Below, one piece after another: positions 47,818 through 50,514 of a stretch of 64,000 nucleotides of DNA. Numbering within the stretch: position 1 is the first letter of the stretch; each line of letters opens with the position of its first letter. The stretch is from the NCBI RefSeq assembly GCF_046105845.1, contig NZ_CP151004.1; one strand, written 5' to 3'. The notes under the pieces were generated by a model that saw only the letters and a program-made list of their open reading frames with translations, made no database searches and had not been told where the DNA came from. The position numbers and the translations under genes are program-made. The stretch is from Escherichia coli. Lineage in GTDB: Bacteria > Pseudomonadota > Gammaproteobacteria > Enterobacterales > Enterobacteriaceae.

Positions 47818-48372
47818 ATGACCCTACGCAAGATTCTGGCACTCACCTGCCTGCTGTTGCCGATGATGGCTTCCGCACATCAGTTCGAAACCGGTCAGCG
47901 AGTGCCGCCGATTGGCATTACCGATCGTGGCGAGTTGGTGCTTGATAAAGATCAGTTTAGCTACAAAACCTGGAACAGCGCGCAGTTAGTGGGAAAAGTG
48001 CGAGTACTGCAACATATTGCTGGTCGCACCTCTGCAAAAGAGAAAAACGCGACGCTGATTGAAGCGATTAAATCAGCAAAGTTACCGCACGATCGTTACC
48101 AGACCACCACCATTGTTAACACCGACGACGCGATTCCGGGTTCCGGCATGTTTGTGCGCAGCAGTCTGGAGAGTAATAAAAAGCTTTATCCCTGGTCGCA
48201 GTTTATTGTCGATAGCAATGGCGTCGCGCGCGGTGCCTGGCAGCTGGATGAAGAAAGTTCCGCTGTAGTGGTGCTGGATAAAGACGGTCGCGTGCAATGG
48301 GCCAAAGACGGGGCGCTCACACCGGAAGAGGTACAGCAAGTGATGGGCCTGCTGCAAAAGTTGCTCAAATAA
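47818..48372 (+). CDS. ytfJ: periplasmic protein YtfJ (DUF1434)
   Basis: 184-aa ORF with signal peptide MTLRKILALTCLLLPMMASA; AAGAAGGA RBS. Confidence 0.9.
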   Translation: MTLRKILALTCLLLPMMASAHQFETGQRVPPIGITDRGELVLDKDQFSYKTWNSAQLVGKVRVLQHIAGRTSAKEKNATLIEAIKSAKLPHDRYQTTTIVNTDDAIPGSGMFVRSSLESNKKLYPWSQFIVDSNGVARGAWQLDEESSAVVVLDKDGRVQWAKDGALTPEEVQQVMGLLQKLLK

Positions 48373-48461
48373 TGGCAATAACATAAATTCTGCAAAAATA
48401 ATTTTCCCCTATCGTTATCTATGGGATAGGGGAATTAAGCCTCTGAGTTCTTACGCCGAAC

Positions 48462-49373
48462 TCATACTGGTAACGCTAGTTGCTTTTTTTTAAACGCCTC
48501 AATGGTCGATTTATATTTCTCGCAAATCTTTTCTTCGGTAATATCACTATCTGCGGCCAGATTCGCACTTACTATCGCATCCACTTGTTCGGCTAATTCG
48601 ACTTGTTGGCAACCTGCATTAACCAGAAAATTATAAATAAGAGAGTAATCTTCATCCTCCAAAACAACAGAGGAACCATTACGAAAACGTTCATCCCCTC
48701 CATAGATTTTAAGCGCAAAGCCCAAAGATTCTATGACTATGGCAAAATTATCATCAATTATTTTTTCGTAAATATACCATCCATCGCATTCTTTAATTCC
48801 ACCTCCTGGAATTTGGAGGTCAAATTTACCCCGTTTTAATTTACTTACTATATCATCCAATACAGCATAACCTAAAGACACGTCACCAAACGCCTGGCGA
48901 ATATAACCTTTAATCCTTTCCGGTATGTCAGACTGTTTTTTCTGCAAAATATCCCAGGCATACAATCTTCTGTTTTGTTCTAACGGAAACTCGCGGTTTT
49001 TGAAATCCATGAATGAGTTATACTCATTTATTGTTATGGGAATTTCTTCGTATTCAAATCCACTGCCTCGCAATGTCATTATATATTCGGCACCGTTATC
49101 TTTAAGGCTGAAACTGATAAGAAACTTATCCATGGTGTTAACAGTTTCATTTTTTGATGAAAGTACCTGATAACTATTTTTATCAATCTGAGTTGCGCAA
49201 CGAAAGAACTCCCGCAAAGTTAACAGGCTATCATAATTTGAAATCCAATCTTTTTTATTAAATGCATGCTGGATATTGTTAAAAAAATTGTTTGAATGTG
49301 TTTTTGTATGCGATGATTTTATAAATAACTCCACCGCACCAATAAAATTATTGTGTCTGATCCTGGGTAACAT
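48462..49373 (-). CDS. ytfI: uncharacterized AT-rich protein YtfI
   Basis: 303-aa ORF, low GC, no recognisable motifs. Confidence 0.8.
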   Translation of the reverse strand: MLPRIRHNNFIGAVELFIKSSHTKTHSNNFFNNIQHAFNKKDWISNYDSLLTLREFFRCATQIDKNSYQVLSSKNETVNTMDKFLISFSLKDNGAEYIMTLRGSGFEYEEIPITINEYNSFMDFKNREFPLEQNRRLYAWDILQKKQSDIPERIKGYIRQAFGDVSLGYAVLDDIVSKLKRGKFDLQIPGGGIKECDGWYIYEKIIDDNFAIVIESLGFALKIYGGDERFRNGSSVVLEDEDYSLIYNFLVNAGCQQVELAEQVDAIVSANLAADSDITEEKICEKYKSTIEAFKKKQLALPV

Positions 49374-49584
49374 ATGGCTACCTTATTTTATTTGGTTATT
49401 TTATGTCGCCATTAAATATCTCATTATAGAAGTAAACTATCAAAAAACGCTCATTATTAAAATGTAACTTATTAGCAATTGAATTTTTGCACTTTAAATA
49501 CAATCTCTTTTTATTTATAACTTTTTAGGTTGGGAGAAATCAGGATGGCAGAATCAGGAAATACACTGTTTCTGCCATCTGAAT

Positions 49585-50325
49585 TTAGTAAATAGACACT
49601 CTGAATCCCGGATTCAGGAACGACTCGCGCGGAGTGTAATCCAGCGGTTTACCCTGCCAGTCGTGAACGTGCGCTCCGGCAGCTGCGGCCACAGCATGTC
49701 CAGCGGCGGTGTCCCAAATATTCGTTGGTCCGAAGCGCGGGTACAGCTGCGCCTGTCCTTCCGCCACCAGGCAGAATTTCAGCGAAGAGCCGATGGACGT
49801 GGTCTGATGTTCGCCAAGCTGTTGCAGATACTCTTTCAGCTCCGCATCTGCATGGGAACGGCTGATAACCACCAGCGGCGGGCGCGCATCGCGGACCTGA
49901 ATCTGCTTGCGCACACCGCACTCTTCTTTCCAGGCTTTGCCTTCTGCCGCGCTGTACATTACGTTCATTACCGGCGCATACACCACACCTAAAATCGGTT
50001 TTCCATGGTCAATGAGCGCAATGTTAACGGTGAATTCGCCATTACGTTTAATAAACTCTTTAGTACCATCCAGTGGGTCTACCAGCCAGTAACGCTGCCA
50101 GTGCTGACGGACTTCCCAACCGGGAGGATCTTCTTCAGAAAGGACCGGAATATCCGGTGTCAGCGTACGTAAACCGTCCATAATAACGGTGTGAGCGGCA
50201 ATATCCGCTGCCGTTACCGGAGAATTGTCCGCTTTGCTGACGACGTCCATCGGTTTCGTCCCGTCGTAGACCTGCATAATGGCATCGCCTGCATTCCGTG
50301 CAAGCTGGCATACTTGATCTAACAT
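49585..50325 (-). CDS. cysQ: 3'(2'),5'-bisphosphate nucleotidase CysQ
   Basis: 246-aa ORF with inositol monophosphatase-family motifs (DPLDGT, WDTAAG). Confidence 0.95.
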
Positions 50326-50514
50326 TTCTCCACCTCGTCTCTGTGAGCGGTGTTAACTTATTGTTTTACTTATACCCTATCGTTAATGAATGCGCCAACT
50401 GTGATAGTGTCATCATTTTCAAAGCGTAAAATTGTGGCATTCTTCACTGTTCTATAAGTAAGACGTTTATTCTCCCTTTTCTTTCGTATTCCCGATGATA
50501 AAAGGATGTCCCTG

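Follow-up and report, generated by a model that had tools for sequence, protein, structure and literature searches.

The gene ytfI of Escherichia coli is best explained as the cargo of an old, AT-rich insertion of about 1.22 kb that is restricted to Escherichia and lies at the stop codons of ytfJ and cysQ. The inserted DNA would be coated by H-NS, would encode a protein, and would exist as a presence/absence polymorphism; a probability of roughly 0.8 was given to this reading as a whole. The gene itself, its orphan status and the binding of H-NS were already on record. New here are the exact insertion point, the family-wide ancestral empty state, the two-state distribution in E. coli, and evidence for an old islet that is still under purifying selection.

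The stretch of DNA analysed (64,000 nucleotides, referred to as the window) was assigned to the E. coli chromosome by matching RefSeq genomes, and the gene order at the locus was, as in those genomes, paeA (ytfL), ytfK, ytfJ, the ytfI ORF, cysQ and cpdB. The core flanks ytfJ (47818..48372, plus strand; Pfam YtfJ_HI0045) and cysQ (49585..50325, minus strand; named after the annotation of the matching RefSeq genomes) are convergent. Between them, and in the same direction as cysQ, the ORF list contained a frame of 303 codons with an ATG start at 48462..49373 on the minus strand, which a sequence-only reading of the window had already described as an orphan gene. This ORF was assigned to the known y-gene ytfI of strain K-12 (b4215). 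The 312-amino-acid form of YtfI (P0001) and the window protein were 95% identical over 100% of the query, and the two alleles were 96.2% identical at the DNA level. Slot, orientation, upstream spacer and flanking hairpins were the same in K-12 and in the window, whereas the window allele is nine codons shorter (303 versus 312 amino acids, TGA replacing TTA). In RefSeq, the 312-amino-acid form of a K-12-type genome (strain AML002_ev02) is labelled 'protein YtfI' (WP_000937655), and the 303-amino-acid form merely 'hypothetical protein' (WP_217800902). The window protein has a mass of 34.9 kDa, a pI of 5.3 and no predicted membrane segment.

The GC content was 0.27-0.38 across positions 48350-49550 (segments of 300 nt) and about 0.5 on both sides. 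For the islet (about 1.22-1.23 kb) a GC content of 34.2% was obtained, compared to 51% for the window overall and to a mean of 50.6% (standard deviation 4.9%) for segments of 1230 bp from the whole sequence; the 211-nt spacer upstream of ytfI had 28%. The ytfI ORF had a GC content of 0.354 and a GC3 of 0.322, as against a GC3 of 0.49-0.69 in the core ORFs of the window. A CAI-like index, for which the core genes of the window itself served as reference, was 0.56 versus 0.685 ± 0.052 (z = -2.4). The codon ATA was used 33 times per 1000 codons in ytfI and 2.9 times in core genes (11 times more), and AGA plus AGG 16.5 versus 1.6 times. Low GC content with AT-rich flanks, as claimed in the sequence-only reading, was thus recovered together with non-core codon usage; the combination of broad conservation and core-like codon usage, which had been named as counter-evidence, was looked for and was not observed. 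At the base composition of the islet a stop codon is expected about every 15 codons, and an open frame of 303 codons would arise with a probability of about 1e-9, so the ytfI ORF is not a chance feature. The remaining five frames over ytfI contained 10-39 stops.

The most AT-rich stretch of the window was an ORF of 608 amino acids at 9873-11699 (minus strand; GC 0.32, GC3 0.31). Like ytfI, it lies amid core genes and has no Pfam domain; its sequence is unrelated to ytfI, and it is double the size. This ORF is probably the 'first islet' implied by the sequence-only reading, and we assume from the K-12 map that it is possibly yjgL. Also amid core sequence, a 264-amino-acid DUF2686 protein was encoded at 61406-62200 (plus strand; GC 0.42, lowest codon-adaptation value of the window) and a 407-amino-acid DUF898 protein at 6199-7422 (minus strand; GC 0.37).

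Empty sites of E. coli 600468, E. whittamii, Citrobacter, Salmonella and other taxa served as the reference for delimiting the islet to 48369..49589. The span from the start of ytfJ to the start of cysQ was 2508 bp here and 1288 bp in an empty genome, a net difference of 1220 bp. In genomes without ytfI, the 3' ends of the convergent genes ytfJ and cysQ share 11 bp, and the insert sits exactly at these overlapping stop codons. The sequence AAATA(A/G) was found at both islet junctions (48367-48372 and 49590-49595) and as a single copy in empty sites, and the islet boundaries are therefore uncertain by a few bases. With 5-6 nt, the pair was the sole candidate for a target duplication; it is compatible with one, being too short and too AT-rich for proof. 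Filled and empty haplotypes are not alike in the final codons of ytfJ or in its stop codon: the C-terminus of YtfJ reads LLQKLLK in the window versus LLHKLINK or LLHKLLNK in empty haplotypes.

The ancestral state of the junction was assessed in 80 species loci that were fetched with a YtfJ query, with ytfJ, cysQ, cpdB and YtfI being located by tblastn. The gap between the last aligned residues of ytfJ and cysQ exceeded 26 nt in only eight of the 80 loci. In about 70 non-Escherichia species of the Enterobacteriaceae, including Citrobacter, Salmonella, Klebsiella, Raoultella, Enterobacter, Kosakonia, Kluyvera and Pluralibacter, ytfJ and cysQ directly adjoin each other or overlap, and tblastn detected no relative of YtfI in these loci. 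Empty junctions of the ancestral type were also found in E. whittamii and in Escherichia sp. E1V33, MOD1-EC7003 and E69. The junction sequence CTGCTGCAyAAryTnCTCArTAAATAG was recognisable in Salmonella, Citrobacter, empty-site E. coli and E. whittamii. An architecture shared from the outgroups to E. coli indicates that the empty state is ancestral and that ytfI is an insertion. An origin of the empty sites by deletion between short CTGC repeats was considered and rejected, since the outgroups show the empty architecture to be ancestral.

Besides its single ORF, the islet contained no transposase, integrase, tRNA or convincing terminal repeats, and it qualified neither as an IS element, nor as an integrative element, nor as a prophage remnant. 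With no mobility genes, repeats, tRNA or donor at hand, its horizontal origin is argued solely from composition and distribution. The proposal that the locus is a small islet of foreign DNA in core sequence agrees with the outlying composition and codon usage and with the empty ytfJ-cysQ junction of the sister taxa. The word 'foreign' appears supported with a qualification: the insertion would be old and co-diverged with its flanks, with no identifiable donor and no mobility genes.

Other DNA was observed in the same slot. In Escherichia albertii NBRC 107761 (L015:5556-7059), the ytfJ/cysQ slot holds a different insert of 1.5 kb with 33% GC, which encodes a pentapeptide-repeat protein of 385 amino acids (Pfam Pentapeptide, E = 8e-12) unrelated to YtfI; this type of insert was also present, with 99.2% identity, in two of 5,426 complete genomes labelled E. 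coli. Insertions of independent origin were seen in two other genera. Citrobacter youngae ATCC 29220 (L042:5560-7680) carries a two-gene insert of 2.1 kb at the junction, the products being a membrane protein with a Cys/Gly/Ser-rich tail and a protein that, as judged by eye, resembles a radical-SAM enzyme. Two Kluyvera species (L058, L064) have an insert of 0.9 kb with an ORF that by eye resembles a D-Ala-D-Ala carboxypeptidase. The ytfJ/cysQ junction appears to be a recurrent insertion point.

The distribution within E. coli was determined in 5,426 complete genomes, in 5,418 of which the locus was matched. Since O157 strains and laboratory derivatives of K-12 are abundant in this collection, the share of genomes with ytfI (1,621 of 5,418, about 30%) is not a population frequency. 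An uninterrupted ytfJ-cysQ junction was found in 3,795 genomes (about 70%) and different cargo in two, which accounts for all 5,418 and leaves essentially two states in E. coli. Presence and absence of the gene, which the sequence-only reading had suggested to check, were thus patchy, with an intact empty site in all but two of the genomes lacking it. Grouped by identity to the window, 392 of the genomes with ytfI fell into the band of at least 99%, 1,179 into 95-99%, 29 into 90-95% and 21 into 80-90%. The highest band includes the window-like 303-amino-acid allele, which belongs to a second allele group, and the K-12 and O157:H7 alleles sit in the band of 95-99%.

Two loci from genomes labelled E. 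coli (L009 and L004; SCPM-O-B-8794 and GCA_031785095) were 89-90% identical to the window in paeA, ytfJ and cysQ and 93% in cpdB. At this distance, which matches that of E. whittamii, both records probably come from a cryptic Escherichia species. In L004 and in a further locus, L005, the place next to ytfI where ytfJ is expected is taken by an IS-type transposase gene (DDE_Tnp_1/DUF772). In E. coli B95.deltaA (L091, NZ_CP085842), ytfJ and cysQ are annotated as adjacent and non-overlapping (1488/1489), unlike natural empty sites. We take this strain to be an amber-free recoded strain, and its junction is probably an engineered replacement of the ytfJ TAG stop.

As the sequence-only reading had stated, no domain was recognisable in YtfI. 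With a cut-off as loose as E <= 10, the window protein still gave no match in Pfam or NCBIfam, and the best match among PDB sequences had E = 0.9. A search of 5.8 billion clustered proteins returned 18 YtfI clusters; E. coli and Shigella were the only sources named for these matches, and the lowest identity was 70%. A profile search against 1.84 billion representatives returned only fragments of YtfI and one TPR-like protein (P0034, 1,441 amino acids, Pfam TPR), the 13 weak matching stretches of which were dismissed as a repeat or compositional artefact. Phage databases contained no relative of ytfI, and 'plasmid' matches were traced to mislabelled chromosomes or large chromosomal fragments. 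Judged from these searches, the distribution of ytfI is limited to the genus Escherichia, including Shigella.

Several borderline profile matches were treated as noise. A match to the PADLOC profile Cas6b (18.5 bits, E = 3e-4) aligned residues 112-152 to positions 84-124 of 240, and YtfI matched no PADLOC-DB defence profile over most of its length. The Cas6b match was present in all seven YtfI alleles, which are not independent of one another. The match to phrog_3250, an uncharacterised family, was short (E = 1e-3), and Pfam LisH was borderline in five of seven alleles (best E = 7e-4) and absent from the window allele. Rfam gave no match inside the islet. AlphaFold2 models reached a pLDDT of 41.7 for full YtfI, calculated with an alignment of seven alleles, and of 45.8 for the better conserved N-terminal 164 residues. 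With these values both models are unusable, and no fold comparison is possible.

Variants of YtfI with 88%, 77% and 70% amino acid identity were all located between cysQ and ytfJ, in hosts whose flanking genes were about 98%, 95% and 90% identical to the window. For the host of the 70% variant, the distance from E. coli matches that of E. whittamii or Escherichia sp. E1V33. Values of dS (Nei-Gojobori) for ytfI versus cysQ were 0.70 versus 0.67, 0.35 versus 0.22, and 0.11 versus 0.07. The dS of ytfI tracks that of cysQ, from which it follows that the islet is old and has diverged in step with its flanks. The presence/absence polymorphism would predate E. coli, given that the alleles found in this slot in diverged Escherichia lineages are correspondingly diverged. 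Either the polymorphism outlived the splitting of species, or the filled haplotype moves from lineage to lineage by homologous recombination in the flanks; the two alternatives are not separable here.

For ytfI, omega was 0.22-0.44, with bootstrap 95% intervals that excluded 1 in every pair. The flanking genes gave 0.01-0.03 (cysQ), 0.02-0.11 (ytfJ) and 0.02-0.04 (cpdB), and purifying selection on ytfI was thus 10-30 times weaker than on its neighbours. Residues at about 30-150 were the most constrained (omega 0.06-0.28). Omega rose up to 0.9 in some windows of the C-terminal half and exceeded 1 in none; the C-terminal tail varies in length and sequence between alleles. The reading frame was kept open across 22% nucleotide divergence. 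On these values, the ytfI ORF is best regarded as a real protein-coding gene under relaxed purifying selection. Truncated or frameshifted forms are common in databases (P0007, 251 amino acids with 729 member sequences; P0009 and P0018, frameshifted), which indicates that ytfI is dispensable and is decaying in some lineages.

The spacer upstream of ytfI occupies 49374..49584 (minus strand). It contains a Shine-Dalgarno-like AAGG at 49384-49381, 7 nt before the ATG, and a promoter-like arrangement of TTGATA, 17 nt and GATATT with an upstream TG, from 49443 to 49415 on the minus strand (42-70 nt upstream). The TTGATA hexamer was kept in five of five alleles. A consensus scan for promoters found 4 sites versus 4.6 expected in shuffled sequences, and this arrangement is put forward as a ytfI promoter by way of proposal only. 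The identity of the spacer to other alleles was higher than that of the ORF in four of four comparisons (98.1 versus 96.1%, 98.1 versus 92.5%, 89.5 versus 85.1% and 83.8 versus 78.1%).

Inverted repeats were found at both ends of the insert. A hairpin at 49537..49586 (minus strand; inverted repeat I1) follows directly after the cysQ stop inside the insert. Its folding energy as RNA was -21.4 kcal/mol (z = -5.6), none of 200 shuffled sequences was as stable, and its stem was identical in the five alleles compared. Its U-tract is weak (CCUGAUUUCUCCC). This hairpin is likely to act as the cysQ terminator and to shield ytfI from read-through. Between the stops of ytfI and ytfJ, a perfect 10-bp hairpin (TTCCCCTATC...GATAGGGGAA) was located at 48404..48434 (inverted repeat I15). 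The 68-nt segment with this hairpin gave -18.4 kcal/mol (z = -2.3), and its stem is largely conserved across alleles. On the minus strand the hairpin is followed by AAAAUUAUUUUU, and it is therefore likely to be the ytfI terminator. Outside the islet, in the divergent intergenic region of cysQ and cpdB, a full-length match to the Rfam sRNA ES239 was found at 50392-50514 (minus strand; 157 bits, E = 6e-32).

The sequence-only reading had also proposed a likely H-NS-silenced locus. Binding of H-NS to ytfI in K-12 has been observed by ChAP-seq, in a segment described as K-12-specific and chosen by that study as its worked example (Higashi et al. 2016, PMC4720273), and the K-12 allele is 96% identical to the window at the nucleotide level; silencing would follow from this binding. 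The H-NS signal on cysQ, cpdB and ytfK in K-12 was not seen in SE11 and SE15, two strains without ytfI; a supplementary table ascribes this signal to ytfI, and the legend of S10 Fig adds ytfJ (PMC4720273). The same study reported a raised dN of H-NS-bound genes (PMC4720273), which agrees with the omega of ytfI measured here. There, ytfI was strain-specific among three strains, whereas here it is an old genus-level polymorphism, present in 30% of the E. coli genomes sampled. The published 10-nt high-affinity H-NS motif TCGATAAATT (at most 2 mismatches) occurred 75 times in the window versus 69 expected and twice in the islet, where it is not enriched; binding presumably rests on general AT-richness.

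In the literature that mentions ytfI, no de-repression in an hns mutant was found, and apart from the H-NS study the gene is mentioned only in passing. Overexpression of ytfI from the ASKA clone was a hit for HOCl resistance in one screen (PMC8228696), and ASKA-cloned YtfI was expressed for a proteome chip and appears in the lactoferricin-B list (PMC3229523). A sigma-32 ChIP peak at ytfI is disputed (PMC2996942, PMC3870955), and a mutation in ytfI is listed for strain JM83.

The following course of events is proposed. About 1.22 kb of DNA would have been inserted at the overlapping stop codons of the convergent genes ytfJ and cysQ, bringing one gene with the region upstream of it, flanked on either side by a hairpin. 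Through these hairpins, cysQ and ytfI, and possibly ytfJ, would each have a terminator-like structure of their own in place of the overlapping stops. An AT-richness far above that of the chromosome would lead to H-NS coating, as seen for the K-12 allele, and the coat would spread onto the neighbours. Under laboratory conditions the gene would be silenced, as suggested by H-NS binding. The product would be a soluble, acidic protein of 35 kDa with a more constrained N-terminal half.

The chromosomal location of ytfI, its constant slot, the lack of mobility genes and a dS that tracks the flanks would also suit an ancestral enterobacterial core gene that was deleted in most E. coli and is only incidentally AT-rich. 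Such a history is scarcely credible in view of the roughly 70 non-Escherichia species of the Enterobacteriaceae with conserved overlapping stops and no YtfI by tblastn, and of the billion-scale protein searches, which found no homologue outside Escherichia and Shigella. Moreover, the empty E. coli junctions resemble those of the outgroup and not deletion scars. It is quite unlikely that the ORF is non-functional, a neutral relic or a spurious frame, and that the islet matters only as an H-NS-binding tract. Omega was significantly below 1 in every comparison, and a frame of 303-312 codons stayed open across a dS of about 0.7 in DNA of 34% GC (chance about 1e-9). Upstream of the frame lie a Shine-Dalgarno-like site and conserved sequence, and the ASKA clone yielded protein for the chip and, in one screen, a phenotype upon overexpression (PMC3229523, PMC8228696). 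These points have to be set against an omega 10-30 times that of the neighbours (0.5-0.9 in some windows of the C-terminal half), a variable C-terminal tail, frequent truncated and frameshifted variants, the 70% of E. coli genomes without ytfI, and the lack of a confidently predicted fold, all of which would fit a gene without function.

The islet is variable and AT-rich, contains a single gene, lies between core genes, and has divergent alleles at its slot, where E. albertii, C. youngae and Kluyvera have other cargo. These features would also be in keeping with a single-gene anti-phage defence, immunity or conflict function whose presence/absence polymorphism and rapid evolution are maintained by balancing or diversifying selection; the weak Cas6b match in seven of seven alleles (E = 3e-4, 41 residues) points the same way. 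Such a role is nevertheless considered very unlikely. The Cas6b match covers one sixth of the profile with 18.5 bits, in alleles that are non-independent, omega was above 1 in no window of YtfI, neither phage or plasmid relatives nor a partner gene were found, and the literature search yielded no experimental phage link for ytfI.

The insertion of an old, H-NS-coated and coding islet is therefore the preferred reading. Within it, our best guess is that YtfI is a conditionally useful accessory protein that would be expressed once H-NS silencing is relieved and that would not have a housekeeping role. A more far-reaching version was regarded as unlikely, in which YtfI is a functional Escherichia-only protein, possibly with a new fold, and the polymorphism predates the separation of E. 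coli from cryptic Escherichia clades and has been kept by balancing selection. If this version were true, it would imply a conditionally advantageous and costly function gated by H-NS, e.g. phage defence, immunity or HOCl tolerance. The finding as such changes little and opens no new question by itself. The ytfI locus offers a clean example of a xenogeneic gene in the chromosome, and may serve as a test case for the persistence of H-NS-silenced orphans.
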